The notes: generated by a model from the sequence alone, not told the origin. 32,000 nucleotides of DNA from Halomicronema hongdechloris C2206 (GCF_002075285.3 NZ_CP021983.2:3840001-3872000), one strand, 5' to 3'; positions 1,533 to 27,851 are shown, counted from the first letter of the stretch. A program made the numbers and translations.

Positions 1533-1692
1533 ACAATATGTCTCTAAGGGGGACTTCGAAAAGTACAAATCTTATTGAGAATGGTGACGAAGTTTCAGTG
1601 GCTTGGGCTCTCGAGATTCTCAAGCCATACTCGCCCTGCTTACGGCACTCTTTGGCAATATTAAAGCAATTCCCTACAAGACTCAGCAAGAC

Positions 1693-5813: not shown

Positions 5814-6142
5814 CTCTCATAATTGGAAGAGCTTCATCTGGGTAGTGTTTGTTCCATCGGTATTTGCATTCTGCTGATGGATAACAGGCATGAGCGTACA
5901 AATGCTGAGCTCCCATATGCTCAATCTGCGAAACCCTTTGCATCTCAAGCACTGTTGATAGCTCATTACCACTAGTAGGTACCGATTCAGTTTGGTTCAC
6001 AGAAATGGCAAAAAATCTGATGTGGCTTCATGAGTGCATCACTTCAAACCACCGACATTGAATGATATGTAGCTCGGGAGCTCCAGCAATCAAACTGTTG
6101 CAATAAAGGCTATTGACCCTACATCACTACTGGAGAACTAAA

Positions 6143-6495: not shown

Positions 6496-9390
6496 ATGAA
6501 GCATGCATCTTCCATCCTCATCCGCAGCATTTTCACTTCATTGTTCCTGCTTGGGGACTTCACTGCAGATTTAGCGCTAGCCAACGAGCCGCCAGCTATC
6601 TTGGCCAGTCATCGAAGTCAGCTTCAAAGTCAGCTTCCCTCGCACCTGACGATGCGCCTGCCTGCTGATAGTTGGCTACAGGAGTTGCTCACCTCAGAAG
6701 AGGATTACTCTGTTCACATATTTCCTGCATCAGCAGAGTCAGGCCTCGCCATTGGACTGTTTACTTGCGATGACATTTCTCCAGACTGTCTAATTGCTAG
6801 CTTTTCTACCCTGGAAGTATCCTCTCCGACTGCTCAAGCAGCATTGCAACAACATCAGGCAGCTGCAGCTCCCATTACCCTTGCCCCTGAAGCGCGAGGG
6901 TATTTGTTGGATGGGTCGAAACTCAGCCCACAGGCTGAACTTTCTTCAGTTGTTTGGGTGCAGGATAACCAGCTTTACGCGGTGCGATTCCCTGCAGACG
7001 TTCGCCAAACGGGATTGTACCTGGCACACTCAATGGCGATTGCCCCACCCCTGTCAGGCATCAGTACTATTACAGAGACTGCGAACGCTCCCACCGAAGA
7101 ATCTGAAGTTACAACTAGAAATCAAATTATCGAGCTATCCTCCGGTGGATTGGCAGCCTTGGCGGAAGCATTAGCCCAACAGTTGCCAGCCGCTGTATCC
7201 ATGAGGTTACCTGAGCGAATGCTATCGCTAGAAACCACAGCAAATGATGAGGCCAACTATCAGCTCGAAGTAATTCCCACAACGACGTCAGATACTTTAA
7301 CAGCGAGTATATTTACCTGCCGAGCCACCACACCAGATTGCTTCCTGGGGCATTTTTCAGCCAGTGCGGGGACGTCGGCAGCAGCAGAGGACTTACATCG
7401 GCAGCATCAGGAGCAAGGAAATTCAGTTACGCTTAGCAGAGAAATTACAGCCTATGTTTTGGAGCTAGTTGAGGGAGATGCCTTTTCGCCCTTGGTGTCG
7501 GTGATGTGGCAGCAAGATAGGCAATTTTATAGGCTCCAGTTTCCGGTGCAAGCGCGGCAAAATATGCTGTTCACGGCACTGTCTATGATCAAAGGGCCGA
7601 TAGTGGTTTCGGCCCATTCAGAGCCTGTAGCTGTCACTGCTGATAATGGGCGCGGGGATGAGTCGTTGTCTTCCATTCCTGAGGAACCGGCCCCGCTACT
7701 GCAATTGCAGGAGGTAGAGACGGCGGCTATCAGTGATAGCACTGCCCAGGCATTACCTCCAGATTCTGTGTCTCCAGATGCTTCCGAGGAAGCAGTGCCT
7801 GCCCCCGCTTCAGAGGCAGAGCCATCATTACTCGAAAGGGCAGAGATTGAAATTCGTGGTGTTGAAGTAAAGGGCAGCACGATCTTTGACAAGATTGACT
7901 TCCAGCCTATTCTTGAGGAAGCGGGGATACATCCCAACTTACTGGAGAATGAAACTCAAACCGTGAATTTGCCGCAGTTGATTAATGTGGCTAACGGCAT
8001 TACACAACTCTATGTGGACCAGGGCTATATAACTTCTCAGGCGATTCCCCCAAATCGAGACAACTTTCCTGACGTTTCAGAGAATGGAATTGTCTATCTG
8101 CAGGTAATTGAGGGACAGTTGGGCGAGATTAACATTCAGGGCACAGAACACTTACAAGAAAGCTATGTCCGTAGTCGGCTGGAATTAGGAGTGACATCGC
8201 CTCTACGAATTGATCGCATTGAGGAACAACTGCGGTTGTTGCAGGTGGACCCCAATCTGTCTGCTGTTGAGGCAACGCTCAAACCGACAGGTACCCTTGG
8301 GTTGAGTAATCTGGAGGTGACGGTAGAGGAAGCCCCGACCTTTGTGGCAGGAATTTCAGTCGATAACTATTCGCCACCCAGGGTTGGTAGTGAGCGGACT
8401 GGAATTGACGTGGCGCTTCGGAACCTGGCTGGGTGGGGCGACTCGCTCTCAGGCTCCTATTTTCGATCCACGACGGGCGGAGCAGAGGTCTTTGATTTCC
8501 GATATACGGTGCCTTTAAACGCCATGAATGGAACCCTACAGTTTCGAGCTGCGCCGGAGCGCAATGAAGTGACCCTATCCGATTTCAGGGAGTTGGGGCT
8601 GCGGGGGGAGATTGAGCGCTACGGTGTGCAGTTACGGCAACCCGTGATTCGATCGCTCAATGAGGAGCTAGCGCTATCGTTAGGCTTTACGTTTCAGGAG
8701 GGGCAGACTTTTGTGTTTGACCAGGAGCCCGCTCCCTTTGGTATCGGCCCGGATGAAGATGGGGTGAGCCGGACCAGTGTCTTCACCTTTAGGCAAGAAT
8801 ACGTTAGCCGAGACAGTTTCGGAGCCTGGGCATTGCAGTCTCAGTTTAATTTTGGTACCGGATTATTTGAGGCCACGGCAAATCCCTCGTCGATTCCGGA
8901 TGGTCAATTCTTTAGCTGGTTGTTTCAGGCCCAGCGGCTGCAGCGTCTGAGTGACAAGCATTTGCTGGTGATTGGAGCCGATGTGCAGTTGACACCGAAT
9001 ATGCTGCTGCCGGCTCATCAGTTCACCATTGGCGGGGGGCAATTGGTGCGCGGCTTCCGGCAAAATGCTCGTTCTGGGGATAATGGCTTTCGTTTCTCCA
9101 TAGAAGATCGCATTACGGTGACGCGGTTGCCATCTGGTGTGCCGGAAGTCCAGCTAGCCCCGTTTGTCGATATGGGGATGGTGTGGAATACGGCAGGGAA
9201 TCCGAATATTTTGCCAGAGCAACGATTTCTGGCGGGTGTGGGCATTGGTGGCATTTGGGATTGGTTTTTGGGGATAGAGCGACTAAGTGTCCGGCTGGAC
9301 TACGCCTTGCCGCTAATTGATTTAGAGGATCGCGGTAACAACGCTCAAGATTCCGGCTTCTATTTTCGCGTGAATTATCGGACTGAATAG
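6496..9390 (+). CDS. ShlB/FhaC/HecB-family two-partner-secretion transporter (TpsB, Omp85 superfamily) with a long duplicated N-terminal extension
   Basis: Signal peptide present. POTRA-like segment EIRGVEVKGSTIF...LYVDQGYITSQAIPP...VYLQVIEGQLGEINIQG. The C-terminal barrel carries the conserved GGGQLVRGF motif and ends in F-rich beta strands (FYFRVNYRTE). Confidence 0.9.
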   Translation: MKHASSILIRSIFTSLFLLGDFTADLALANEPPAILASHRSQLQSQLPSHLTMRLPADSWLQELLTSEEDYSVHIFPASAESGLAIGLFTCDDISPDCLIASFSTLEVSSPTAQAALQQHQAAAAPITLAPEARGYLLDGSKLSPQAELSSVVWVQDNQLYAVRFPADVRQTGLYLAHSMAIAPPLSGISTITETANAPTEESEVTTRNQIIELSSGGLAALAEALAQQLPAAVSMRLPERMLSLETTANDEANYQLEVIPTTTSDTLTASIFTCRATTPDCFLGHFSASAGTSAAAEDLHRQHQEQGNSVTLSREITAYVLELVEGDAFSPLVSVMWQQDRQFYRLQFPVQARQNMLFTALSMIKGPIVVSAHSEPVAVTADNGRGDESLSSIPEEPAPLLQLQEVETAAISDSTAQALPPDSVSPDASEEAVPAPASEAEPSLLERAEIEIRGVEVKGSTIFDKIDFQPILEEAGIHPNLLENETQTVNLPQLINVANGITQLYVDQGYITSQAIPPNRDNFPDVSENGIVYLQVIEGQLGEINIQGTEHLQESYVRSRLELGVTSPLRIDRIEEQLRLLQVDPNLSAVEATLKPTGTLGLSNLEVTVEEAPTFVAGISVDNYSPPRVGSERTGIDVALRNLAGWGDSLSGSYFRSTTGGAEVFDFRYTVPLNAMNGTLQFRAAPERNEVTLSDFRELGLRGEIERYGVQLRQPVIRSLNEELALSLGFTFQEGQTFVFDQEPAPFGIGPDEDGVSRTSVFTFRQEYVSRDSFGAWALQSQFNFGTGLFEATANPSSIPDGQFFSWLFQAQRLQRLSDKHLLVIGADVQLTPNMLLPAHQFTIGGGQLVRGFRQNARSGDNGFRFSIEDRITVTRLPSGVPEVQLAPFVDMGMVWNTAGNPNILPEQRFLAGVGIGGIWDWFLGIERLSVRLDYALPLIDLEDRGNNAQDSGFYFRVNYRTE

Positions 9391-9438: not shown

Positions 9439-12400
9439 ATGGGTTACGCATCACCACAGACAGAGAACACTACTGGTTTGATAATGCAGCTGGGCCGACT
9501 AGGTATCCAGGCATTGTTGGTGGCGTTGCCGATGACTGGGCTATGGGTGGGGGGATTGCCTGGCTTTGCTCAATCCATTATTCCGGCAGCGGATGGGACA
9601 GCCACGATCGTGACGCAGGATGGGGAGCGCTACATCATTGATGGCGGCACCTTGTCAGGTGATGGCGCGAATCTGTTCCATAGCTTTCAGGAACTGGGGC
9701 TGTCAGCGAATGAGATTGCCACGTTTTTGTCTGACCCGACGATTCAAAATATTCTGAGCCGGGTTATCGGAGGTGATCCGTCGATTATTGATGGGCTGTT
9801 ACAGGTGTCGGGAGGTAACTCGAACCTGTTTTTGATGAATCCGGCGGGGATTGTATTTGGCCCAAATGCTCGGCTGGACTTGTCGGGGTCGTTTAGTGCG
9901 ACAACAGCAACAGGCATTGAGTTTGCTGAAGGCTGGTTTGATGCCATTGAGGCAGGTGACTTTACGACCCTGACGGGAAACCCTATCGCGTATCGGTTTG
10001 GGGTGGGGGAACCGGGGGCGATCGTCAATGCCGGAACGCTGGCGGTTGAGCCTGGGCAGGGAGTGTCGCTGGTGGGCGGCACGGTGATCAATACGGGGAC
10101 GATTGAAGCTCCGGGGGGACAAATCACGGTAACGGCGGTGCCAGGGACCAGTCGAGTGCGGTTGCAGCAGCCGGGATGGGTGGTGGCGCTGGAGGTGGAT
10201 GTGGCGCTGCTGGCAGAAAGTGGCGCGTCGGCCATTGCCCCATGGGATTTGCCGAGGCTGCTGACCGAGGGAGCACCGGGCATCGAGACGGGATTGGTGT
10301 TGGCGGCGGATGGCTCGGTGCAGTTGGCGGAGTCCGGGGTGATGGTGCCGAGTGGAGGGGCGACGAGCATTGTGTCGGGGCAATTAGATGCGGCGAATAG
10401 AGCGTCGGGACAGACCGGGGGTGAAATTGCGGTTTTGGGCGATCGGGTTGGCTTAGTCGGTGCTGAGGTAGATGCATCGGGCGATGCGGGTGGTGGTCGT
10501 GTGCTGGTGGGGGGTGAGTTTCAGGGCAACGGGATGTTGCCAAATGCAGAGCGGACGTATATAAGTGAGGATTCGAGCATTCAGGCTGATGGAGGGACAA
10601 CAGGTGATGGGGGCGAAGTGATCGTTTGGGCGGATGAGGTGACAAGATTTTATGGGGGGATTAGTGCCCAAGGTGGGAACGAATCGGGTAACGGTGGATT
10701 TGTCGAGGTATCAGGTGCAGAAACTCTGACGTTTCGAGGAGAAGTTAATACGAGTGCTCCAAACGGGGAAGCCGGGACGTTGCTACTAGACCCTGAAAAT
10801 ATTGTGATTGTCGATGGAGCGGGAACTGATGATGGTCAGATTATTGATGGCGAAATACTGGCTGGAGATGGTCCTAGTGATACCTTCACAATTTCAGAAA
10901 TTGCTTTAGAAAATTTAGGGTCAGATACCAATGTCATTTTAGAAGCAACTAATGATATTACTATTAACGATTTGACCGATGATGCTTTAGCGTTTTCGGA
11001 AGGCCCTGGTGGTTCAATAATTTTTAACGCCGGCAATGATTTTATAATGCTTGATATAGAAGGAGATAGCGTTTTTGCAGGAGGCATTTTAGGAGAAGGT
11101 GATCAAATCGTTGCCTTTGATCGCAACATTTCAATTTCTGCTGGTGGAGATGTAATTATTGGTACGATAAATACGCTTACTCCTTCAGCTTTTCCTTCAA
11201 CTAATGATGCTGGTTCTATCAATGTTAGTTCTGAAAATGGAAGTATTGCTGTAAATATATTAGACAGTCGGTCTCCTGATGGAAGCGGAGGTGAGATATC
11301 ACTTGATGCATTTGGTGACATTACTGTCAATAACGCAATATTTTCACTCGGAGTTTTTGATGGAGTTGGAGGAGACGTCACTATAACTAGCCGAGCTGGT
11401 CAAATAAGCATCCCCCGCCTTAATACCCGTGGAAGTGCATCTGCTGGAAATATATTTGTTTCTGCACTTGGTGATATTGCAATTGATGATACTGCTGCTG
11501 CACCAGCTAATGCTTCAGCAGATAATGTCGGTGGCAACGTCGAAATCTTCAGTGAAGAGGGAAATATATTCATCCCAGATGGTATTTCCTCAAGTTCCAG
11601 TAATGGCGATGCTGGCGATATATCTATTATTGGCCTTAATGGATTTATTAATATTGATACAGGAGAAATAAATTCAAGTTCTCTGAACGGTGAAGGCGGC
11701 AATATACTAATACAAGCTTTGGGAAATATTACAACTTCTGACGTCACTTCTCGAATCCCTGTCGAAGACAATAACGGTCTCCCAAATCTAGGCACTGGCA
11801 CTGCAGGTGATATCACAATCAGAAGTCTTGCAGGTTCGATTGACACAACTAATCAAACCAACTTTGCAGGCATTGATGCGCGATCTAACAGCGGGCAGGG
11901 AGGCAACATTATTCTCGAAGCTGCAGGGGATATCAGAACGGCTGATGTGGCTTCGTGGATTAGCATCACTAACAACGGCAGCGGCACAGCAGGCGACATT
12001 TTGATCAGGAGTTTGAATGGGGCTGTCGATACCACTGCTCAGGTCAATGATGGGGTCTTGGCTAACTCCAATAACGGCACCGCAGGCAGCTTAACCATTG
12101 AAGCGGCAGGCGATGTCCGAACAGGTGATATTGGCGCTTCCATTGCAGATACCAATAACGGTAGTGGCTTTGCAGGTACGGTGACCGTCAGAAGCGCAAA
12201 CGGATCAATCGACACGAGGGCCGGTAATGTCGCTGCTCGCAGTCAAAACGGCACTGCTGGCAGCGTCACCCTTGAAGCCGAGAATGGCAGCGTCTTCACG
12301 AGTGATATTGATGTTGATGGTTTAACTGGAGGTGACCTCAGAATCATTGCCGAAACCGCGATTACCACTCTGGAGCTCGATACGAGCGGCTCCACTGGCA

Positions 12401-14316
12401 GCGGCGGCAATGTCTTCCTAGATCCGTTAGAAGACGTAGAGGTCTCATTTATTGATGCTCAAGGGGGACTGGCAGGTGTTGGCGGCGAAGTTGATATCAC
12501 TACCGGGCGTTTCTTTCGCGCTACTGGCACCTTCATCGACCAAAATGGTATTGAAGCAAGCATTTCTAGTGCTGGAGGCCAAGGTGGCGGGCCGATCACC
12601 ATTCGTCATGGAGGTGGCTTACAGGGAACTTCCTTTGACGTTGGCGATGCCACTGTTAATGGCACTGCCGGAGCAATCACTTCCGCTGCTGATAACGTCA
12701 TTGCGCCCACTCAGTCTTTCCCCACGTCTTACACGCAGGGCAATATCCGCATCCTCACCCCTTCCCCCAACGTGGTTGAAACTCAAACCCAGCCTGCTAT
12801 CCCAGAGGTGACAGATCCTGAGTCTCCAGCCGCCAAACTGGTGGCGCAAATAGAGACAGTTCTCACCTCAGATGTTCAAACCTACTTTGGACGCACAGGC
12901 GAAGATACGCCGATCAAAACCCTCAGCGTGATCCAAAGTGAACTCAACCGGGTAGAGGCACAAACCGGTTCCGTAAAACCAGCGGTGATTTATGCCTTTT
13001 TTGTGAATTCTCAAATTGATACCGAGAGGCTTGCCGAAATTGTCAACAAGAATCCTCAACCTTCCGGGCAAGTGGAAGAATCGCCTGATATCCAATGGCG
13101 ATACTCTTCTGACCGACAAGGCACCGCTTACTCTACCATTAGCCCCTATGTCTCTCAAGCGGAAGAAGTCTCTGAAAAATTGGTGTTAATGGTCATCACT
13201 GCCGATGGTCCGCCAAAACTGTTCCCTACCGAGGTTACCTTTGAGCAAATTGATTCTGCTGTACAAAATCTCAATGCTCAACTGAGTCAGGATTTTGGCA
13301 GCGATCGCTGGGAACCCCATGCCCGCTCCATGCATAACTATTTGATTGAGCCCATCGAAACCATGCTTGAAGATCAGGGCATCAACAACTTACTCTTCGT
13401 CATGGACGCCAATCTCCGGCATCTTCCTTTAGCGGCTTTCCTCCCAGGTAATGATAATGATGATGCGATCAGCGATTTGCAAAGTGATGCAGAAATCGCC
13501 AGCAGACTCCGCTCAACTCCGTTGTCGCTGCTCAAGAGTGCTGATGGTCGCTACCTAATCGAAGATTACAGCGTCGGCTTAGTCCCTAGTATGAGTCTGA
13601 CCGATACTCGCTATCGAGATGTCAGCCAAGATCCCTTTCTGGCGATGGGAACCGATGATTTCTCTCAATCCGAAGATCGGCTCAGTGCTTTGAAGGGAGC
13701 TCGTACCGAAATTGAGTTCCTAGAAACCATCTGGCGTGGAGAAGTCGAAGTACCTGATCAGGCAGAGTTCACGATCGGCAACTTACAGTCCTTGTTGCAG
13801 CAGCAAGATTTTCGCATCGTTCACTTGGCAACCCATGCTCAGTTCAAAGACAGTGAAGCCCATAATTCGTACATTCACTTCGCGGGAACGGAGCGGCTGT
13901 TTCTAGATGAGTTGCCTACGACATTAGACTTGCATGACATTGAGCTTCTAACCCTGAGCGCCTGTGAAACAGCCCTCGGCGACAGAGAAGCTGAACTGGG
14001 ATTTGCTGGGCTAGCATATCAAGCCGGTGCCAAGTCAGCACTAGCTAGCCTAGTACAAGTTTCAGACGTGGGCACGGCAGCACTGATGGCTCAGTTTTAT
14101 ACCAACCTCAGTAATGCCCCCATCAAGGCTGAAGCCTTGCGAGAGGCCCAACTTGCTATGTTAAACAGGCGAGTCTATGTCCAAGAGGGGCACATCTATG
14201 GTGAGGGGTTAGAAGCGGGTTTTCCGCTTCAGGAACCTCTAACAGCCTCTAGCTATCAAAGCTTTGAGCATCCCTATTATTGGGCTTGGTTTACCGTAGT
14301 CGGCAGCCCCTGGTAG
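9439..14316 (+). CDS. Two-partner-secretion exoprotein (filamentous haemagglutinin N-terminal TPS domain + beta-helical repeats) with a C-terminal CHAT caspase-like peptidase domain
   Basis: Signal peptide present. TPS-domain motifs NLFHSFQELGL and NPAGIVFGPNA. GGFVEVSG...GTLLLDPENIVIV. Degenerate repeats of about 58-68 aa span roughly 11695-12320. CHAT dyad: VHLATHAQF (His codon 13834-13836) and LTLSACETA (Cys codon 13963-13965). Confidence 0.9.
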   Translation: MGYASPQTENTTGLIMQLGRLGIQALLVALPMTGLWVGGLPGFAQSIIPAADGTATIVTQDGERYIIDGGTLSGDGANLFHSFQELGLSANEIATFLSDPTIQNILSRVIGGDPSIIDGLLQVSGGNSNLFLMNPAGIVFGPNARLDLSGSFSATTATGIEFAEGWFDAIEAGDFTTLTGNPIAYRFGVGEPGAIVNAGTLAVEPGQGVSLVGGTVINTGTIEAPGGQITVTAVPGTSRVRLQQPGWVVALEVDVALLAESGASAIAPWDLPRLLTEGAPGIETGLVLAADGSVQLAESGVMVPSGGATSIVSGQLDAANRASGQTGGEIAVLGDRVGLVGAEVDASGDAGGGRVLVGGEFQGNGMLPNAERTYISEDSSIQADGGTTGDGGEVIVWADEVTRFYGGISAQGGNESGNGGFVEVSGAETLTFRGEVNTSAPNGEAGTLLLDPENIVIVDGAGTDDGQIIDGEILAGDGPSDTFTISEIALENLGSDTNVILEATNDITINDLTDDALAFSEGPGGSIIFNAGNDFIMLDIEGDSVFAGGILGEGDQIVAFDRNISISAGGDVIIGTINTLTPSAFPSTNDAGSINVSSENGSIAVNILDSRSPDGSGGEISLDAFGDITVNNAIFSLGVFDGVGGDVTITSRAGQISIPRLNTRGSASAGNIFVSALGDIAIDDTAAAPANASADNVGGNVEIFSEEGNIFIPDGISSSSSNGDAGDISIIGLNGFINIDTGEINSSSLNGEGGNILIQALGNITTSDVTSRIPVEDNNGLPNLGTGTAGDITIRSLAGSIDTTNQTNFAGIDARSNSGQGGNIILEAAGDIRTADVASWISITNNGSGTAGDILIRSLNGAVDTTAQVNDGVLANSNNGTAGSLTIEAAGDVRTGDIGASIADTNNGSGFAGTVTVRSANGSIDTRAGNVAARSQNGTAGSVTLEAENGSVFTSDIDVDGLTGGDLRIIAETAITTLELDTSGSTGSGGNVFLDPLEDVEVSFIDAQGGLAGVGGEVDITTGRFFRATGTFIDQNGIEASISSAGGQGGGPITIRHGGGLQGTSFDVGDATVNGTAGAITSAADNVIAPTQSFPTSYTQGNIRILTPSPNVVETQTQPAIPEVTDPESPAAKLVAQIETVLTSDVQTYFGRTGEDTPIKTLSVIQSELNRVEAQTGSVKPAVIYAFFVNSQIDTERLAEIVNKNPQPSGQVEESPDIQWRYSSDRQGTAYSTISPYVSQAEEVSEKLVLMVITADGPPKLFPTEVTFEQIDSAVQNLNAQLSQDFGSDRWEPHARSMHNYLIEPIETMLEDQGINNLLFVMDANLRHLPLAAFLPGNDNDDAISDLQSDAEIASRLRSTPLSLLKSADGRYLIEDYSVGLVPSMSLTDTRYRDVSQDPFLAMGTDDFSQSEDRLSALKGARTEIEFLETIWRGEVEVPDQAEFTIGNLQSLLQQQDFRIVHLATHAQFKDSEAHNSYIHFAGTERLFLDELPTTLDLHDIELLTLSACETALGDREAELGFAGLAYQAGAKSALASLVQVSDVGTAALMAQFYTNLSNAPIKAEALREAQLAMLNRRVYVQEGHIYGEGLEAGFPLQEPLTASSYQSFEHPYYWAWFTVVGSPW

Positions 14317-14350: not shown

Positions 14351-15103
14351 CTAGTTGCTTTCACACAGCTCGGCATAGATTTGGTTTGTGTAGGCATCTT
14401 TTTCAGCAGATTGGCTGAGGTTAAACAGCTCCTGTACGGCATCAGCAAAGAAGTAGGTTTCGCTGTCCGCTCCGGCTGCTGTAATACCACTACCCGGAGT
14501 GTAACTATGGCTAGAAAAGTAGTCTATTCTTTGCCAGGTCAGCGAGTCCCGGTCACTTGAAGCCGATCCACTAGATAAATCGTTCAATGCTGTTTGAACA
14601 TTCTGCCATTCAGCTTGGGGAAGAAGCTGGAACGGTACGGCAAATGGCCTGTCCCCACCTCCATAGATTTCAAAGTAGTATTCTTCTCCAGGCGACAAAT
14701 TTTCCTTGTCATAGGCTATAGAGTGCAGGGTTTGAGCATCTGCATCTTCTGGGATGGATACCGTGTCACTCCATCTAACGTCGTTGACAGTCTCTCCTCT
14801 CACCTGAACTCGCAGCTCGCCTTCGCCACCGAACCAAACAAATAAAGGCTGGTGATGCCAAATGTAGCCACCGTCAGGTGTGATTACACAGATAGGGCCT
14901 CGCGTACTTCCCCCGCGCGACCGTCTAAAAATCTTATCGATGATTGATTGGCTTTTCTCTTGTTGACCGTCAAAATTCAGCACCTGAGAAACTGGAGTGT
15001 TCCCGAATGCTGATTGACTAAAAACGCCTGCCAACATTGCTCCGGTCGCTGGTAATAAGACTGACAGCAATAGTCTTTTTGAATGAGTCCGTAGTAAACG
15101 CAT
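14351..15103 (-). CDS. DUF928-family secreted protein
   Basis: Signal peptide present. An RSRGGSTRGPIC motif followed by PLFVWF matches the remembered DUF928 pattern (R-GGGxRG-C then PTFFWY). Its ATG overlaps the stop of the upstream gene by 1 nt. Confidence 0.65.
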   Translation of the reverse strand: MRLLRTHSKRLLLSVLLPATGAMLAGVFSQSAFGNTPVSQVLNFDGQQEKSQSIIDKIFRRSRGGSTRGPICVITPDGGYIWHHQPLFVWFGGEGELRVQVRGETVNDVRWSDTVSIPEDADAQTLHSIAYDKENLSPGEEYYFEIYGGGDRPFAVPFQLLPQAEWQNVQTALNDLSSGSASSDRDSLTWQRIDYFSSHSYTPGSGITAAGADSETYFFADAVQELFNLSQSAEKDAYTNQIYAELCESN

Positions 15104-17610
15104 CAGAATATCCTCCGGGTAATAGGTCCTAAGTAGTTCAGTAAAACAGTCAAAGGGAATAGAACCGGCAGCAAAACGGGCACCGAAACATAAAGCTGTA
15201 GGCTGAGTAATCCATAGCCAGTGATCGCGAAGAAAGCAGTGCGAATCAATTTTTTGCGTTTCGCCCGTGGCTGTTTCTGTAGCGCTAAAACAGTGCCTTT
15301 GCCCAAAAAGATGGCTAATCCCGTCATTAAATAGTTGGGTACAACTCTAACCTGGTGTCGCTGCAAGAGTTGAGAGGTCATATAGGCATGGAATTCTGAG
15401 CTACTGAAAGACCTGGGCTGATATGCACAGCTTTGTCGTGTCCCCTGGTTTGAGTCCTGGGTATTAGGTCGATTAAGTGATAAACACCACCAATACTCTA
15501 TAGCCAATGGTGGCGAATAGTTATCTTCGGCATCGGCATAGTCACCAGAGCCAATGATGAAAACCTGATCAGAAGATTGCGCAGTTGTGTCAGCATCCGA
15601 TGAACTCTCTTCCAGTAAATTAGAGGCCAATGTTCTTTGATAAAAAAAACTAGGTGGTAGCGAAAAATCGATAATAGATTGCCAACCCAAAAAAGATTTA
15701 TTCTGATGTATGAAGCTTCTTGATTGTTCGTTTTCGGCCAGTACAGTATTGGTTAAGGCGATCACACTCTTACAAAAATCATTACCAACATTTTCAATCT
15801 CTTGATCGCCGACCGCCTGATCCACTTTTTGCCTGAAACTTGTTATATTTGCCGTCGCAGGACTGGCATTTAGACTGTGTGATAAGGCCATCAAATAGCC
15901 GAAAGGGCACAGCTCCTCTAAATCGCTATCGTCTGGGGTGTCAACATCCCATGTGTAGAAGTTAGCGTCACTTCTTAGACTGACTTCCAGTTGTTGTAGC
16001 TCATCGAATACCTCAAGGTTCCGGTCTGAACTTGTTGGTACGACGAACCAGCTACCCTGCTCTCGTGACACTTCTCTCATGGTGTCGAGCAGTTGAGAAG
16101 AACCTGCATCAGGATCATCTAATAAATATCCAATGCCAATCGTTTTCGGCTGATAAAGGGAGACTTCATCAACTAGCTCGGCGATAAAAGCTTGGGGCAT
16201 CGGTTCCGCTTCGGTAATACCAGCCATATCTAACGCCCGTTGATCTATCGCGATTAAATGGACGGGCGGTACAGCATCTTCAGCCATTACTGGAACTTGT
16301 TGGGTTATGTCTCGATAAACTGCCTGTAGTGCAACACGCACTTCAACTAGCACATCTTGAACAACGGGTACGGCACCTAACAGCAGCACCGCTCCCGCAG
16401 TGGTTAGCTCCCGCTTGGTGGGTAACCACTTCCTCATCTGCTGCCGCCAAACGTACGACTTGATGCGGTACGGCAGCACCCTTGGTGGGCTGAATAATGA
16501 CGGCACCAGATGAGCCGACGGAAACTTGATATTCTCTGCCGACCTTAGCACCTCGCAGGTCTGCATCATTGCTGTGTGGGCATCTTGATACTCTCGGAGC
16601 CGCTGACAAAACTGGGTCAGAAATTCCTGAGCTGCATCATCGTGAATCTTCTCCCGCATCACGATCGCTTGAATACCTGACCGAGTCAGCGACTGGGCGA
16701 TCGCCAATCCTGAACAGGAATTGAACACTGCTAGCCTTAGCCCCTGACGCTGGGCTGTTTCCAAATGCTCTCGAATGTCATTGACTGACAGACTGACCAT
16801 CGGCGTTAACTTAAACGTGCCACTGGTATTTTCCTGGTCACTGCTATGGCCAGTAAAGAAGAGAACGTCCCATCCGCGATCATCCGCGATCGCCTCAAAT
16901 ACCTTGCGAGTAATGACATGGGGCGCATCCTCTGGCAACCACTTGGCTTTTTTGACATCGGCAACCGGGCGCAAGCCTCGGATGATTTCCCAATCCCCAT
17001 CTACGTCTAGGTGATTATCCTCAGCCACAATGGCTAAAACTCTTGGCTTTTTGAGCGATTCCGGTGGCGGCTGTCCGGCTAATCCTTGAGGGTCATCCCT
17101 CGCTGTGCGAATCACCCGAATTGAGTTGGACGGCAATCCCTGGGGTACGAGCCTTCTGGCCCATGCTTCCCAAGGGAGTTGCTGCAAGCGGCTATCTCCA
17201 CAGGCCAGAAAAACATTCACACCCAACGGCATGGAGGACTCTTCCTCACTGGTTTGAGAAACCTCCAGTAAGGCCGTTTGCAACTGTCGCTCGATTGAGC
17301 GAGTATCCCCAGCACCCAGCCAATCTAGAAAAGTCGTGGTCAGTATATCCTCAGCATTCCTGACCGCCGCTGACGGATCGCCATTAGGACGTACCGAAAA
17401 GGTACCGCTACGAGTCACTGGCTGTTCCGATTGCAGATGATAGTATCTCAGGTACTGCCGCTGCCAACTCTCATAGTCCCGCTGCAGCCTGCCCAGAAAG
17501 GGTTGACTAGCAAACAGATCACGCTTTCCCTCATCCCAGACCAGGTAAAAAACGCAGGAGCCATCGTCCTGAGAGAGTACCTTCAAATCAAACGTTACTT
17601 GCCTCGCCAT
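15103..17610 (-). CDS. CHAT peptidase domain (N-terminal, cytoplasmic) fused to a CHASE2 extracytoplasmic sensor with 1+3 transmembrane helices
   Basis: CHAT dyad in DVLFFTGHSSD (His255) and LAVFNSCSGLA (Cys299). First TM helix around residues 401-417. CHASE2-like motifs VHLIAIDQRALDMAG, TIGIGYLLDD and VFIIGSGDYADAEDNYSPP. Three C-terminal TM helices follow, and the protein ends right after the last one. Confidence 0.8.
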   Translation of the reverse strand: MARQVTFDLKVLSQDDGSCVFYLVWDEGKRDLFASQPFLGRLQRDYESWQRQYLRYYHLQSEQPVTRSGTFSVRPNGDPSAAVRNAEDILTTTFLDWLGAGDTRSIERQLQTALLEVSQTSEEESSMPLGVNVFLACGDSRLQQLPWEAWARRLVPQGLPSNSIRVIRTARDDPQGLAGQPPPESLKKPRVLAIVAEDNHLDVDGDWEIIRGLRPVADVKKAKWLPEDAPHVITRKVFEAIADDRGWDVLFFTGHSSDQENTSGTFKLTPMVSLSVNDIREHLETAQRQGLRLAVFNSCSGLAIAQSLTRSGIQAIVMREKIHDDAAQEFLTQFCQRLREYQDAHTAMMQTCEVLRSAENIKFPSAHLVPSLFSPPRVLPYRIKSYVWRQQMRKWLPTKRELTTAGAVLLLGAVPVVQDVLVEVRVALQAVYRDITQQVPVMAEDAVPPVHLIAIDQRALDMAGITEAEPMPQAFIAELVDEVSLYQPKTIGIGYLLDDPDAGSSQLLDTMREVSREQGSWFVVPTSSDRNLEVFDELQQLEVSLRSDANFYTWDVDTPDDSDLEELCPFGYLMALSHSLNASPATANITSFRQKVDQAVGDQEIENVGNDFCKSVIALTNTVLAENEQSRSFIHQNKSFLGWQSIIDFSLPPSFFYQRTLASNLLEESSSDADTTAQSSDQVFIIGSGDYADAEDNYSPPLAIEYWWCLSLNRPNTQDSNQGTRQSCAYQPRSFSSSEFHAYMTSQLLQRHQVRVVPNYLMTGLAIFLGKGTVLALQKQPRAKRKKLIRTAFFAITGYGLLSLQLYVSVPVLLPVLFPLTVLLNYLGPITRRIF

Positions 17611-20462: not shown

Positions 20463-20730
20463 AGTTGAGCCTCATACTCATTTCAACTGCGTTGCGCGAT
20501 CGCTTCGTGAGTCATTCAGTGCAACCACGATGAACTGATTCAGTTACAACCCTACTGCTCAAAAAACAGATCACAAAGTCTTCGTTACCAAGCTTTAGAT
20601 GAGCAATTGAAGCGGCCAATATATGAATAATTCGATGACTTTTGCATAACTGAATCGCTGCCTAACCTCCAACCTGATGAATGGTCAGAGCCACTCAGAA
20701 CGGCTGTCTAAATTCACAGAGGTATTTGTT

Positions 20731-22863
20731 ATGGGCTTCAAACGTTCTGGAATCCATGAAATCGATTCTTTATTAAAAGGAAAATACTGGAATGACACGG
20801 GTAAGCCCGTTACCCTCACCTACAGCTATGACGTGACCGGAAAAGACGGTCTAAACAGAGAGCAGAGAGACATGATCTTTGAAGCTCTAAACCAATGGCG
20901 AAAAGTAGCCAATATCAACTTCAACTGGGTGCCAAAGGGGGGGGATCTTCGATTTAAGGCAGAGGATATTCCGGGAGGAAATGTTGACTACAAGGAAGCT
21001 GTTGACTGGTGGAATCCCTTTAGCTACGGTACCAACAAGCTTAAGCACGTCAATATCAAGCTTGGGAAAAATTTAATCACGGGAAAAGGTAACGATTTCT
21101 TAGAAGTTGCTCTGCATGAAATCGGTCATGCTATTGGATTGAAGCATCCAGGCCGATATGACGGTGATAAAAGTAAGGGTGAAGGCCCATTTTTGGCTTA
21201 TTCCCAAGACCACAATACCAATACTGTCATGTCTTACAACCACGCAGGCTCTCTTGCAGTTACCCCTATGCCCTACGACATCAGGGCAGTGCAGTACCTA
21301 TATGGTGCTAGAAGTTTCAACCCATTTAATACCCGCTATAAATTCAGCACTATCCATAGTTATAAAAGCGAAGATTCCAGAGTGGAATTTCGGGGTCGCG
21401 ATGACAAGGTCATGAAACTGACTATCTGGGATAGTGGTGGAGAAGATACTCTCGATTTTTCAAAGCTTGCTTTTGCTCCCGATGGATATCATCTTGATAT
21501 TCGTGAAGGAGGAATTCTTGCCACCAAGTTCAACCTAGAAAAGGACGCATTTGGTCAGTATTACGCCAGAGACAATACTAAGGATACGAAATACAGCGAC
21601 CATCAGTATCGGGCCGCAAGTATTGGCACGGCGATTGCCTACGGTACTCATATCGAGAACGCCATTGGTACTTCGAGCTTCGACGAAATCATTGGAAATG
21701 GACGTTCAAATCGTATAGAGGGTAAAGGCGGTAACGACATCATCAAAGGCGGTGGTGGTAGCGATACTGTATACGGTGACTCAGGCAATGATCGCATCTA
21801 CGCTGACGGTGGTCATGACAAAGCCTATGGAGGTTCAGGAGATGACTTTATTGCCGGATGGTACGGCAATGACTATCTCAGCGGTGGTTCTGGCAGCGAT
21901 CGCATCTATGGCGACGACGGTCATGATACAGTCTACGGCGGTTCAGGTAACGATGTAATTTGGGGTGAATCTGATAATCCTAATCTCAACCGCAAGTTTG
22001 GTGCTGGTAACGATAAGCTCTACGGTGGTACCGGCCATGATGAAATCCATGGTGGCAAAGGCAATGATTTAATTAACGGCGACTCTGGTAATGACAAACT
22101 CTACGGCAATTACGGCGACGACCGAATCTATGCCGGTCGTGGCGATGACAAAGTTTATGGTAGTTCAGGGGATGACTTTATCGCAGGCTGGTACGGCGAC
22201 GATTATCTCAGCGGTGGATTTGGCGATGACCGCATTTATGCCGATGATGGTGACGATGTTGTCCGCGGTGGGTTTGGCGACGACATTATTTGGGGAGAGT
22301 CAGATAACTACAAGCTTAATCAGAAGTTTGTGGGGGGTAATGATGATTTGAGTGGCGAGTATGGTCACGACAAAATCTATGGTGGTAAAGGAAACGATAG
22401 TGTCAAGGGTGGTGCTGGCAATGACAGGCTATACGGCCAGCAAGATCATGACACCATTGATGGTGGTAGAGGCGAGGATTACCTGAGTGGCGGTTCTGGC
22501 AACGATATTCTGGTGGGCGGAGATGATGATGATGTGCTGAGAGGGGGAACTGGTGCTGATATGTTTCGCTTCTCCTCCCTTCGACACGGAGTTGACCAAA
22601 TTCGAGACTTTACTCAGGCACAAGGTGACAAGCTACAGATTGTTACTAGTGGTTTTGGCGGTGGCTTAGTTTTAGGACTCTTAGATGCTAGTCAATTTGT
22701 TTTGGGTTCAGTTGCGACTAATGCGAGCGATCGCTTTGTTTACAACCAAAATACAGGTTCTCTCGCCTTTGATGTTGACGGTTCTGGCAGTCAAGCTGCT
22801 GTTCAATTTGCCAATCTAGCTATAGGGCTAAATTTAAGCGCCGGCGATTTCGTCCTTGTGTAA
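20731..22863 (+). CDS. Serralysin-like (M10B metzincin) zinc metalloprotease with RTX calcium-binding nonapeptide repeats
   Basis: HEIGHAIGLKHP (HExxHxxGxxH) with Met-turn TVMSY. Dozens of GGxGxD/GxDxL repeats. C-terminal tail ...GDFVLV (acidic residue plus hydrophobics), as in type I secretion substrates. The ATG at 20731 (GAGG upstream) is preferred over 20677. Confidence 0.88.
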   Translation: MGFKRSGIHEIDSLLKGKYWNDTGKPVTLTYSYDVTGKDGLNREQRDMIFEALNQWRKVANINFNWVPKGGDLRFKAEDIPGGNVDYKEAVDWWNPFSYGTNKLKHVNIKLGKNLITGKGNDFLEVALHEIGHAIGLKHPGRYDGDKSKGEGPFLAYSQDHNTNTVMSYNHAGSLAVTPMPYDIRAVQYLYGARSFNPFNTRYKFSTIHSYKSEDSRVEFRGRDDKVMKLTIWDSGGEDTLDFSKLAFAPDGYHLDIREGGILATKFNLEKDAFGQYYARDNTKDTKYSDHQYRAASIGTAIAYGTHIENAIGTSSFDEIIGNGRSNRIEGKGGNDIIKGGGGSDTVYGDSGNDRIYADGGHDKAYGGSGDDFIAGWYGNDYLSGGSGSDRIYGDDGHDTVYGGSGNDVIWGESDNPNLNRKFGAGNDKLYGGTGHDEIHGGKGNDLINGDSGNDKLYGNYGDDRIYAGRGDDKVYGSSGDDFIAGWYGDDYLSGGFGDDRIYADDGDDVVRGGFGDDIIWGESDNYKLNQKFVGGNDDLSGEYGHDKIYGGKGNDSVKGGAGNDRLYGQQDHDTIDGGRGEDYLSGGSGNDILVGGDDDDVLRGGTGADMFRFSSLRHGVDQIRDFTQAQGDKLQIVTSGFGGGLVLGLLDASQFVLGSVATNASDRFVYNQNTGSLAFDVDGSGSQAAVQFANLAIGLNLSAGDFVLV

Positions 22864-22916: not shown

Positions 22917-23031
22917 GTGCAACTGAATCAGTCTTCCAGTTTCTCAATAATTAATATATAGAGCCTTACAAAATTGAGTAAATTAGCATTCCTGCGTCAT
23001 TGGTTCTAATCAGAATATCTGGAGACTTTTC

Positions 23032-23688: not shown

Positions 23689-24457
23689 GGCTCTTCCCAG
23701 CTTTTGGTAATGCTGATAAAACCATTGCTGTACTTCATTGGAGCTTCCTGTCATGTAGCCATAATGAATCGCTTGGCAAGTAGCTCTAAGCCAGCCCTGC
23801 CGTACATCTGTCGCTTCAGCATCTTCAGCTTGTTGTTCAGGCCTTCAACGTGGCCGTTGCTAACCTCTGTCATCAGGCTTGCTTAGCCGCAGCATAGTCA
23901 TCAAATATCCCTTTGGCAAACGTTTGCAACGGTTTGAGAGCGCAGCTGGCGGCCTTGCGTAGCCAGTCATCGAGGACGCCTGCTTGTCGGTGTCTTAACA
24001 GTTGTAAGAACTCATCAGCCAACTCAACCAGCACCGTCAAGTTTGGATGCTGTTGCCTCACCCGCTCTAGGAGATCAGTCTCTTCTGCCTGCCGATTGTC
24101 TGGATTTAGATTGTCTGGATTTAGCATGACCAAGTGGGCGGCTTGACGCGGGGTGAAGGGGGGCGACTGTGGGTCAACGACCTTGGGCAACGTCTGAGCG
24201 ACTTTGATCCTCACTGGCGGTAGCCCCTGTGCTTTGCGCAGGCCGTAAATGTAGCGTTGTAGGGTCCGAAGAGAGCTTTCAAAACCCAAGGGTTTGAGCA
24301 ATTCCATCAGAATGCTCAGTTCTCGAATCCCCGAGTTCCACCAGTCCAAAAGTCGTAGATTGTAGGGATCGAGTAGGCTGCGCCCAAACATAGCACGGCG
24401 CGCGGGTACCTCTGGAAAGTCTGGGTAGCGTTCAACGGTTTTGAGACTAACGCCTAC
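23689..24457 (-). mobile_element. ISL3-family IS remnant: only the C-terminal third of the transposase, frameshifted, plus a probable terminal inverted repeat
   Basis: The 207-aa ORF carries LLDPYNLRLLDWWNSGIRELSILMELLKPLGF... and ...LKPLQTFAKGIFDDYAAAKQA. After a frame change at about 23873 it continues as TEVSNGHVEGLNNKLKMLKRQMYGRAGLELLAKRFIMAT* (stop at 23751-23753). This is the ISL3 signature SNGxVEGxNNxLKxxKRxxYGRA. GGCTCTTCCCAG at 23689 matches the ISL3 IR start GGCTCTT. No DDE core is present. The 24457 boundary is approximate. Confidence 0.7.
24094..24123. repeat. Perfect 15-bp x2 in-frame tandem duplication GATTGTCTGGATTTA (encodes NPDNL-NPDN) inside the ISL3 remnant
   Basis: Read directly. 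Confidence 0.95.
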
Positions 24458-24902
24458 TAATGGTAGTCGGCGACACTCCGCTGGCCTCAGGGCCAAGCAG
24501 CGCCGCTAGCGCTTCGCTAGAGTCTCTGGTCGAGACCCTTTTGAGATATAATTAGGGCAACGCCTCCTCTATGCTCGTGGCTCGTTTCAAATACGGCGGC
24601 AACAACCGAGAGTTGAACTTAATGCCGCTACCGCTGCGGTCTCGCACTTTCGGCACTTTGACCTCCACCTCACCCACACCCGTTATAATCGTGCACTCGG
24701 GTGAATAGCTGTTGCGCACGACTGCCTAGCGACCCCGCTCATCTCGCCGGTCGGCGTACTCGGCTAAGAACTCCTGCAACTCCGCCTCCACCGCTTGAGC
24801 GATGATCTGACGAGCACCGTTACGGATCAAGTCGCTCAGAGCGTCATGAAAGGTTTCCGTTGTCTCAACCGATTGAAATGCAATAAGATTGTCGCTACTC
24901 AT
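24447..24902 (-). pseudogene. IS256-family transposase, N-terminal fragment with in-frame stops
   Basis: The minus-strand translation from the ATG at 24902 reads MSSDNLIAFQSV...LIRNGARQIIAQAVEAELQEFLAEYADRRDERGR*AVVRNSYSPECTIITGVGEVEVKVPKVRDRSGSGIKFNSRLLPPYLKRATSIEEALP*LYLKRVSTRDSSEALAALLGPEASGVSPTTIS. This is the IS256/mutator-type N-terminus. Stops fall at 24726-24728 and 24552-24554. Confidence 0.75.
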
Positions 24903-25315: not shown

Positions 25316-25980
25316 ATGGAAACGCCTATCGTCAACTGGAAGACCAATTACGTCAATGGGTCGAGCCCAAAGACCAACGCCATCTGCAGGGCTTCGCTGA
25401 AATGCTGGCGGCCATCTTGCAATCTGGCCAGGCCTGCTTGGGGAAATAGATTCCTTACTTGGATCACCTCGGGTGTAACGCCCGAGCTCACTTGGAACGT
25501 GTGAGCTATTTTCTCCGCAATGATGTGAGCTATTTTCTCCGCAATGAGCAGATCACTGCGGAACGGGTCTACCTGCCCTTGTTACGCCATGTGCTGTCCG
25601 CGTTTGCTGGGGAAGCTGTCCTGTTGACCTTGGATACGACTCTGCTGTGGAATCACTGGTGCTTGATAGAGGTGTGCTTGGCTTGGGGCGGTCGGTCGCT
25701 CACGCTAGCCCAACAGGTGATTGAACATCGCAGTGCCACCATCAGTTTCGAGCAATACCACGGGGTGCTGGAGTGCGCCCGTCGAGCCTTACCGCCAGGG
25801 GGTCAGGTGACGCTTTTGGCCGACCGAGGCTTTGAACATGGAGACTTGATTCGTTGGCTCAATCGCCATCACTGGAACTGGTCGATTCGCGTCAAGTCAG
25901 ACTGGCTGGTCACCCTGGCCCAGGGGCGAACTCAACCCGTCGAGGCCCTCTGTCCACCGCCGAATCAGGCGCCAAGTTAG
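25316..25980 (+). pseudogene. IS4-like DDE transposase, disrupted and 3'-truncated
   Basis: The frame open from 25312 reads ...YRQLEDQLRQWVEPKDQRHLQGFAEMLAAILQSGQACLGK*IPYLDHLGCNARAHLERVSYFLRN...LTLDTT...LLADRGF...IRVKSD. There is an in-frame TAG at 25447-25449 where Trp is expected. The only ATG (25316) is out of frame. The third catalytic region is absent. Confidence 0.65.
25501..25548. repeat. 24-bp x2 in-frame tandem duplication GTGAGCTATTTTCTCCGCAATGA(T/G) (VSYFLRND-VSYFLRNE) in the IS4-like pseudogene
   Basis: Read directly; the two copies differ at one base. Confidence 0.95.
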
Positions 25981-27224: not shown

Positions 27225-27851
27225 TTACATATCATTACCCTGAACCTGGCTTTCCTGCAGCACTTGAGCCAGGGTTAGCTCTAGGTCTGGAAACGTGGGC
27301 GATACAATTGGCTCTTCATCGCGAAAGAGCGCCACCTGATATTCTCCATCCACCCACTGATAGACTGAAAGAGTCGGTTGCTTGGGGGTGCCGATGTAGC
27401 GCCGTCCCCCCAGCCCTAAGTAATCCACAATCCAAAATTCCGGAATTCCCATCTCTTCATAATCCGCTGCCTTGCGCTGGTAGTCATCCCGCCAATTGGT
27501 GCTGACGATCTCTACTATCAACGGCATCGACTTGCCTTGCGTCAAGGTGGATTCTCGCTGCCAGCGGGGTTCATGCTTCAGTTGAGTGGAGTCCACCACG
27601 ACCACATCAGGTAAATAACCTGATTGTTCACTGAATGGCTTGATCGTACAACTCTTGGGAAGAAAGTAAGGCAACTTGAGGCGGGCAATTTCCACTGCTA
27701 GCCGACCATTCAAATACCCGCCCACCTGTTCATGGACTCCGGTTGGTTTCACTTCCTGTACCCTGCCATTGATCAGTTCATAGCGTCCCTGCTCTGGGTA
27801 CCAGGCCATGAATTCATCGAAGGTGGTGACTGAGGAAGTTGTCTGAACCAT
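27225..27851 (-). CDS. Uma2-family (DUF820) putative restriction-endonuclease-like protein
   Basis: TFDEFMAWYPEQGRYELINGRV, YLPDVVVVD, PLIVEIVSTNWRDDYQRKAADYEEMGIPEFWIVD are the typical Uma2 PD-(D/E)xK pattern. Confidence 0.85.
   Translation of the reverse strand: MVQTTSSVTTFDEFMAWYPEQGRYELINGRVQEVKPTGVHEQVGGYLNGRLAVEIARLKLPYFLPKSCTIKPFSEQSGYLPDVVVVDSTQLKHEPRWQRESTLTQGKSMPLIVEIVSTNWRDDYQRKAADYEEMGIPEFWIVDYLGLGGRRYIGTPKQPTLSVYQWVDGEYQVALFRDEEPIVSPTFPDLELTLAQVLQESQVQGNDM

Follow-up and report, generated by a model that had tools for sequence, protein, structure and literature searches.

Canonical CHASE2 receptors, as Zhulin et al. are said to have described in 2003, are histidine kinases, Ser/Thr kinases, adenylate cyclases and GGDEF/EAL proteins. 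In these receptors one transmembrane (TM) helix, the CHASE2 domain and three further TM helices are followed by a C-terminal output, which acts by nucleotide messengers or by phosphate transfer. Here, we describe a gene in a 32,000-nucleotide stretch of the Halomicronema hongdechloris C2206 genome (NZ_CP021983.2:3840001-3872000; the whole stretch is called the window below) whose protein shares the TM-CHASE2-3TM cassette, whereas its output domain, a CHAT domain, is N-terminal and of a predicted proteolytic type. The gene, referred to as CHAT-CHASE2, is the third of four co-directional genes on the minus strand, which encode a sigma-like protein, a DUF1822 protein, the CHAT-CHASE2 protein and a DUF928-like protein.

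Both the architecture and the idea of a receptor-protease are already published from sequence analysis, and the design is common in cyanobacteria. According to Kaur, Iyer, Burroughs & Aravind 2021 (eLife 10:e70394, PMC8195603), EACC2 proteins consist of a constant N-terminal alpha+beta domain, a caspase domain and a variable C-terminus, and CHASE2 with TM helices (EACC2+caspase+CHASE2+TM) is one of the C-terminal variants listed. The neighbours of the EACC2-caspase genes are DUF1822 (TPR or TRADD-N+TPR) and a sigma factor of the extracytoplasmic function (ECF) type. As a computational prediction, the authors proposed a stimulus-induced activation of the autopeptidase, with the ECF sigma factor as the final step. 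Our locus differs from these systems in nothing essential: it appears to be an instance of the type with a similar gene order, the variable C-terminus being CHASE2 with TM helices. The DUF1822 neighbour is clear, while the sigma neighbour is recognised by a region-4-like helix-turn-helix (HTH) only. Our contribution consists of the translational coupling, tallies from about 80 loci, the finding that the secreted protein has an affinity to DUF928, and a neighbouring CHAT protein of the two-partner secretion (TPS) type.

A protein of Trichodesmium erythraeum was described before that by Jiang et al. 2010 (PMC2853523) and Asplund-Samuelsson et al. 2012 (PMC3501461). It is a metacaspase-TM-CHASE2-3TM protein, and in the latter paper it is read as a receptor with CHASE2 outside and the caspase homologue free in the cytoplasm. 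It shares with the window protein the N-terminal caspase homologue, the single TM helix, CHASE2 and the three TM helices, but the caspase homologue there is a Peptidase_C14 metacaspase/orthocaspase, not CHAT, and a single sequence is reported. The receptor-caspase concept of the initial annotation of the window had thus appeared earlier, in PMC3501461 and in PMC8195603.

Two further systems join a CHAT domain with sigma-factor control. The type III-E Craspase (Strecker et al. 2022, PMC10028731) comprises Cas7-11 and the TPR-CHAT protein Csx29, together with Csx30 and CASP-sigma. Csx29 cuts Csx30, which relieves the inhibition of CASP-sigma and results in a transcriptional response. The likeness lies in the fold and in a sensor-triggered CHAT protease, whose cut in Craspase itself is specific and falls in a sigma-factor inhibitor. 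However, the Craspase sensor is the cytoplasmic RNA-guided Cas7-11 complex, whereas the sensor predicted here is a periplasmic CHASE2 domain on the same polypeptide, and the sigma-like protein of the window is atypical with its 497 amino acids (aa). Between DUF1822 and Csx30 there is no detectable similarity, the DUF1822 profile matching no PDB chain convincingly. We found no Cas family among the neighbours scanned, and the window has neither a CRISPR repeat array nor an Rfam CRISPR family. With no cas genes identified and a CRISPR array absent, membership in Craspase was rejected, while a similar working logic is possible. The other system is DdvA-DdvS of Myxococcus xanthus (PMC11506125), where DdvA is a transmembrane anti-sigma factor with TPR-CHAT that controls the ECF sigma factor DdvS. 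It resembles the window protein as a membrane protein in which a CHAT domain goes together with the regulation of a sigma factor, a link that is inferred in our case. DdvA carries its CHAT domain in the periplasm and a zinc-binding anti-sigma domain in the cytoplasm, whereas in the window protein CHAT is predicted to be cytoplasmic and CHASE2 periplasmic; DdvA has one TM helix against four, and its ZAS anti-sigma domain was not found in the window protein.

In our reading, to which we give a probability of about 0.5, CHAT-CHASE2 would be an inner-membrane sensor-protease within a four-gene signalling operon, in which a signal leads to a limited cut and the cut to the release of the sigma-like protein. 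The evidence that supports this reading is the domain architecture, the catalytic dyad, the fold, the gene overlaps, the synteny, the sigma-like HTH and a loop motif, together with the proposal of Kaur et al. and the precedents of Csx29 and DdvA.

Domains, catalytic dyad and predicted topology

CHAT-CHASE2 is a single unbroken frame that starts at an ATG, codes for 835 aa and ends in GPITRRIF; its features are collected in Table 1. A public protein that is 100% identical is labelled just "CHAT domain-containing protein" and is annotated with 771 aa, starting at Val65. Since conservation among the homologues sets in at about residue 7 (L9, C19, F21, W49 and others), and since the ATG overlaps the DUF1822 stop, the ATG at 17610 is the better start. 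The annotated start at Val65 would probably remove half of the N-terminal domain (17419-17610, minus strand).

Pfam matches were judged against the curated cut-offs, which are 24 bits for CHAT (PF12770) and 26.3 bits for CHASE2 (PF05226), and the protein scores above both. The CHAT match covers residues 230-376 with 39.7 bits (E 5e-10), and the CHASE2 match residues 440-766 with 35.3 bits (E 1e-8). For CHASE2 the alignment runs over profile positions 31-247 of 257. For CHAT the match is confined to positions 127-274 of 289, the C-terminal half of the profile, and the CHAT domain is therefore a divergent one.

Residue 255 of the window protein is a histidine, in the motif GHS, and residue 299 a cysteine, in the motif FNSCSG. 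Both are invariant in an alignment of 41 sequences (41/41), although the identities are about 30-65% and mostly close to 30%. An AlphaFold2 model built on these 41 homologues reached a mean predicted local distance difference test (pLDDT) score of 84. According to the model, a caspase-type alpha/beta domain spans residues ~130-375, and the dyad, in the order His...Cys, is located at or just past the strands 249-253 and 293-300. The best fold match in Foldseek is SAVED-CHAT (8tl0, E 3.6e-8), followed by the Craspase protein Csx29 (8d9f, E 3.7e-7; 8d9f and 8eex together at about 1e-6 to 1e-7). DdvA, the CHAT-containing transmembrane anti-sigma factor, is matched at E 7e-4 (8rw5). Separase, caspase-9 and gingipain are matched as well, and the probability is 1.0 for these three, SAVED-CHAT and Csx29, i.e. 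the fold is caspase-like. A profile search of the PDB with the CHAT-CHASE2 family gave just a marginal match to the alpha-haemoglobin-stabilising protein, which is probably spurious. With the dyad intact and invariant, peptidase activity of the CHAT domain is the natural prediction from the sequence.

In front of CHAT, the model shows an N-terminal domain with strands at 4-13, 18-25 and 30-37 and helices at 40-59, 79-98 and 103-120. Its conserved residues in the alignment are C19, F21, W49, Y53, Y57, G69, F94, W97 and L98. Pfam gave no match for this domain at E up to 10; by its modelled fold it fits the published description of EACC2, and by description and synteny we regard it as EACC2-like. 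The loop formed by residues 62-74 is the sole long stretch of low pLDDT in the cytoplasmic part, and it carries the invariant Gly69 as well as conserved basic residues. The motif present here in most homologues is [LMF]RGR..x[SG]G, with [RK]SG in the clade of the window. This loop might, speculatively, be a site of autocleavage or a pseudosubstrate.

The hydropathy analysis gave no signal peptide for CHAT-CHASE2. Hydropathy and the model together place TM2 at ~757-775, TM3 at ~789-808 and TM4 at ~809-828, and the segment between TM1 and TM2 has ~328 aa, with a mixed domain modelled at 450-756. Lysine and arginine (K/R) are concentrated on one side: five in the N-terminal flank of TM1, seven in the loop QKQPRAKRKKLIR that joins TM2 to TM3, and the C-terminus TRRIF is also K/R-rich. 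This charge pattern, the hydropathy and the model fit a cytoplasmic N-terminus and CHAT domain and a CHASE2 domain that is predicted to lie in the periplasm, with one TM helix before it and three behind it. The protein stops seven residues past TM4, and no domain follows.

The architecture given by the initial annotation was borne out by these results. It had placed a CHAT domain with His255 and Cys299 in about 400 cytoplasmic residues, in agreement with a first TM helix at ~402, and had described one TM helix, a periplasmic CHASE2-like region of about 330 aa, three TM helices and an end without a C-terminal kinase, cyclase or GGDEF output. The two Pfam families it named, PF12770 and PF05226, are those found above their cut-offs.

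The four-gene operon, its partners and its distribution

The DUF1822 stop and the CHAT-CHASE2 start share a single base (TAATG), and so do the CHAT-CHASE2 stop and the start of the DUF928-like gene (TGATG). Shine-Dalgarno-like sequences, GGGAGAG and GGAGGA, precede the two junctions. From the overlaps and these sequences we conclude that CHAT-CHASE2 is translationally coupled with both the DUF1822 and the DUF928-like genes. A scan of the operon for sigma-70 promoters and terminators found sites no more numerous than in shuffled sequence.

Synteny was scored with profile hidden Markov models over 84 loci, 80 of them from representatives with one genome per species. The sigma-like and DUF1822 genes lie directly upstream in 45 of the 67 evaluable loci, and a DUF1822 gene is found upstream on the same strand within ~6 kb in 49/67. 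Directly downstream, a DUF928-like gene is present in 59 of 78 loci. In one locus (L015, 3672-9754) the order is shuffled to DUF1822, CHAT-CHASE2, DUF928-like and sigma-like, with all four genes still together. The operon coupling and the conserved synteny with the sigma-like and DUF1822 genes make it likely that the output is transcriptional, by way of the sigma-like protein.

The 497-aa protein itself has no hit in Pfam (E up to 10) or in NCBIfam. Its family profile matches the sigma-r4-like HTH of DeoR in the PDB (7bhy, E 4.6e-4) and region 4 of SigF (E 0.53), and 12 out of 47 family members have a Pfam Sigma70_r4 match. In an hhalign comparison, residues 350-418 aligned with region 4 of RpoE at E 0.041. 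An AlphaFold2 model (pLDDT 87) found chains of sigma A/B in four of its top eight Foldseek hits (E 0.045-0.2). These four weak lines of sequence and model evidence agree and support a sigma-70 region-4-like HTH at ~350-418.

For the DUF1822 protein, the family profile gave only spurious matches to major histocompatibility complex chains in the PDB; we regard the protein as a candidate adaptor or substrate. The 250-aa protein encoded by the fourth gene gave in Pfam, at E up to 10, only a chance hit below threshold (Ribosomal_L24e, E 0.093). In its family Cys72 and Cys247 are invariant, Pfam DUF928 is found in 15 of 32 members (best E 5e-8) and an Ig-like domain in 12 of 32. In the periplasm it might serve as a co-sensor or ligand. 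Both the Sigma70_r4 and the DUF928 affinity were seen only with family-wide scans. NCBIfam and PADLOC scans returned no hits for the four operon proteins, and the operon is thus not a catalogued defence system.

A word-indexed search gave 146 homologue clusters. Among the 120 that were listed, most have 744-948 aa with a query coverage of 95-100%, and most carry both CHAT and CHASE2, the remainder one of the two. Single-frame relatives are encoded in at least 575 species-representative genomes, with one genome scanned per species, and 80 of these loci were kept. According to the record titles nearly all of the 80 are from cyanobacteria, many of them from filamentous genera, for example Moorena, Calothrix, Nostoc, Okeania, Coleofasciculus and Leptolyngbya. 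When 1.84 billion representatives were searched with just the first 385 residues, 1,919 clusters at 50% identity were matched, 1,617 of them with E <= 1e-10; among the 150 clusters listed, the ~800-aa CHASE2 type again prevails, beside a few proteins of lesser length. Some genomes have two CHAT-CHASE2 loci, namely L008/L081, L025/L033 and L030/L049 (metagenome-assembled genomes of Allocoleopsis, Rivularia and Mastigocoleus).

The breadth of the family also answers the question of an annotation or assembly artefact, in which a CHAT gene and a CHASE2 gene were read as one. The frame is uninterrupted, most of the 120 listed clusters are full-length two-domain proteins and the matches in the 80 kept loci run mostly across residues ~1-833. 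Nothing was found in favour of an artefact, the start at Val65 in the public annotation being the sole irregularity. We consider read-through or fusion of two genes refuted, including the fusion of two frames that the initial annotation had named as fatal to its interpretation.

Neighbouring secreted proteases and a candidate operator

Next to the operon lies a second, convergent CHAT system. A TPS exoprotein, which begins with a TPS domain and ends in a canonical CHAT domain, is paired with its transporter, and the 1625-aa product is apparently an exported caspase-fold protease. The convergent arrangement is repeated in one further locus (L001), and L085, one of the two closest loci, has a truncated convergent CHAT gene in this place. 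Possibly, the TPS-CHAT protein is functionally linked to the operon. The GC skew is very high (0.39) at 10001-11000 and coincides with Gly-rich repeats. On the other side, a divergent gene for an RTX protease is shared by the window and both closest loci, L086 (6131-9535) and L085 (1-1839). Its catalytic domain is a serralysin (M10) in the window and in L086 and a subtilase (S8) in L085.

Upstream of the sigma-like gene, in intergenic DNA, we found a palindrome, a candidate operator, whose core CTGAATCAGT is kept in the two closest loci (9920-9930 in L086) while the remaining intergenic region has diverged. The window has six strand matches to the palindrome against 0.95 expected, and L001 has an exact copy between genes, upstream of ShlB (12214-12224). 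The copies suggest a shared operator, through which a single regulator would act on the sensor operon as well as on the secreted-CHAT operon.

Two other groups of genes lie further out. A STAND NTPase (NB-ARC + TPR) of 853 aa with a TTG start, at 1603-4164 (plus strand), is of a conflict-system type and unrelated to the CHAT-CHASE2 gene; it matches the NCBIfam model "FxSxx-COOH system TPR protein" with 409.9 bits (cut-off 300). At 23873-24496 (minus), 25459-25980 (plus), 27225-27851 (minus) and 27918-28754 (minus) there are transposase-like, Uma2 and aminoglycoside 3-N-acetyltransferase genes. The two transposase matches, of the ISL3 and DDE_Tnp_1 types, are weak and partial; such a gene content suggests that the 3' side of the locus is mobile or variable.

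Table 1. Features of the CHAT-CHASE2 locus, with positions counted from the first nucleotide of the window.
Feature	Position	Strand	Basis or location
CHAT-CHASE2 gene (gene 3; EACC2-like + CHAT + TM + CHASE2 + 3TM), 835 aa	15103..17610	-	ORF (open reading frame), Pfam, homologues, AlphaFold2 model
N-terminal alpha+beta domain, residues ~1-125	17236..17610	-	model secondary structure, conservation
Loop residues 62-74, low confidence	17389-17427	-	model pLDDT, conservation
CHAT caspase-fold domain, residues ~128-378	16477..17229	-	Pfam, invariant dyad, Foldseek
His255 codon	16846-16848	-	CHAT domain
Cys299 codon	16714-16716	-	CHAT domain
TM1, residues ~402-428	16327..16407	-	hydropathy 1.88, K/R-rich N-terminal flank, model helix 399-435
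Periplasmic (predicted) CHASE2 domain, residues ~429-756	15343..16326	-	Pfam 440-766; homologues with PF05226
TM2-4, residues ~757-828	15127..15342	-	hydropathy and model
Gene 1, sigma-factor-like protein, 497 aa	18969..20462	-	family profile, Pfam on members, hhalign, Foldseek
Gene 2, DUF1822 protein, 444 aa	17610..18944	-	Pfam DUF1822 E 2.9e-27
Gene 4, secreted DUF928-like protein, 250 aa, signal peptide	14351..15103	-	family alignment, family Pfam scan
TPS exoprotein, 1625 aa, N-terminal TPS domain and C-terminal canonical CHAT	9439..14316	+	Pfam TPS E 1.9e-40, CHAT E 1.7e-61
TpsB-type outer-membrane transporter for the TPS-CHAT protein	6496..9390	+	Pfam ShlB, POTRA_2, Omp85
Secreted RTX-repeat protease gene	20677-22863	+	divergent, upstream of sigma-like gene
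Palindrome AACTGA-W-TCAGTT, candidate operator	20533..20545	.	~75 nucleotides upstream of sigma-like gene
Palindrome near-copy, 2 mismatches	5980-5992	.	upstream of TpsB gene
Palindrome near-copy	22921-22933	.	just past RTX protease gene
Palindrome near-copy	31304-31316	.	inside an ORF

Proposed circuit and competing explanations

If the operon works as we propose, CHASE2 would sense a periplasmic cue, for which a small molecule, the DUF928-like protein and products of the neighbouring secreted CHAT or RTX proteases are candidates. The TM bundle would relay the signal to CHAT, probably by a changed geometry of a dimer or oligomer, a step modelled on other CHAT proteases in which the dyad is misaligned at rest. 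The activated CHAT domain would then make a limited cut, either in its own flexible loop 62-74 or in the DUF1822 partner. This cut would free or activate the sigma-like protein and switch on a regulon, which plausibly includes the adjacent secreted-protease genes. By analogy, the logic would be that of Craspase, with a membrane receptor in place of the RNA-guided sensor. The circuit would be a proteolytic version of anti-sigma signalling and not necessarily a death-caspase pathway.

Several observations weigh against this reading, most of them against its sigma-factor part. Neither a sigma-like nor a DUF1822 gene was among the profile hits in 17 of the 67 loci, up to 10 kb on each side, so the sigma coupling is either not obligatory or works in trans; these loci may be paralogues that use partners encoded elsewhere. 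No sigma-2 region was detected by sequence in the 497-aa protein, and its model matches sigma factors only weakly (E 0.045-0.2, as given above, with TM-scores below 0.3). While ECF sigma factors have sigma-2 and sigma-4 regions in ~200 aa, here the region-4-like HTH alone was matched, and weakly, in 497 aa, and the protein could be a different kind of HTH regulator. The DUF1822 protein has no recognisable anti-sigma domain, and in the PDB profile search it had no relative of solved structure and no convincingly matched chain. The palindromic form of the candidate operator suggests a dimeric regulator and not a sigma promoter. Finally, we found in the literature no experimental study of the activity, substrate or ligand of the CHAT-CHASE2 family.

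The protein could instead be a stand-alone receptor death caspase, in which a CHASE2 ligand sets off broad cytoplasmic proteolysis and cell death or arrest, on the lines of programmed cell death or abortive infection. The intact dyad, the lack of any other output domain, the loci without sigma-like and DUF1822 neighbours and the conflict-system-type genes in the window (the NB-ARC/TPR STAND protein and Uma2) would agree with such a role, and Kaur et al. grouped the EACC2-caspase proteins with apoptosis- and immunity-like systems (PMC8195603). We consider it unlikely, however, as the conserved, tight coupling to the sigma-like, DUF1822 and secreted proteins speaks for a regulatory circuit, PADLOC defence models gave no hit, and the nearest characterised CHAT folds (Csx29, SAVED-CHAT and separase) belong to enzymes of specific and limited cleavage. 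The ligand-gated proteolysis of the initial annotation fares accordingly in two ways: a signal-gated cytoplasmic protease remains the natural reading of the protein, but it does not stand alone, being part of a conserved, sigma-linked operon.

A somewhat less likely possibility still is a protease cascade, in which the receptor CHAT activates a second CHAT protease nearby, the TPS-CHAT protein in the window and a TPR-CHAT or short CHAT protein elsewhere. Such a pair would parallel initiator and executioner caspases as well as SAVED-CHAT, our best fold match, which cleaves PCaspase in a published proteolytic cascade. Of 34 fully flanked loci, 18 have a second CHAT protein (TPR-CHAT, short CHAT or TPS-CHAT) no more than 10 kb away, and the Pfam CHAT scores of these neighbours are very strong; in Kaur et al. 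(PMC8195603), a Fischerella operon ends in TPRs+CASPASE. However, CHAT genes are abundant in filamentous cyanobacteria; moreover, the type and orientation of the partner differ between loci, and in the window the second CHAT would be exported by TpsB to another compartment than that of the cytoplasmic CHAT. Very unlikely, in our view, is a tether without proteolysis, where CHAT would sequester the DUF1822 or the sigma-like protein at the membrane and a signal would release it uncut, like the resting CHAT of DdvA. The model does match DdvA, whose catalytic-dyad mutants behaved like the wild type under the conditions tested (PMC11506125), and the partial profile match marks the domain as divergent. 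Against a mere tether, the GHS and FNSCSG motifs with their His and Cys have stayed invariant at ~30% identity, which argues for retained catalysis.

Starting again from the sensor-protease reading, a wider and more specific proposal can be made, which we put forward as tentative and, taken as a whole, doubtful. The locus would then represent a new class of transmembrane signalling, mainly of filamentous cyanobacteria, in which CHASE2 reads the DUF928-like protein or the activity of the exported CHAT and RTX proteases, and one cut in DUF1822 or in the protein's own loop frees the ~500-aa sigma-like factor. Such a class would be free of phosphate and distinct from one-component and two-component systems and from ECF/anti-sigma signalling by regulated intramembrane proteolysis, a membrane-receptor counterpart of Craspase.

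The architecture is known from computation only, and the value of the locus is that of a well-defined experimental target rather than of a discovery. It could yield the first function for three large families (DUF1822, DUF928-like and EACC2-CHAT) and the first ligand context for CHASE2, and it could show how the protease-to-sigma logic of Craspase and DdvA is carried to envelope sensing. If the reading is true, hundreds of cyanobacterial species would signal by a specific caspase-like cut, not by phosphorylation or a nucleotide messenger, and this cut would feed an unusual sigma-like regulator.

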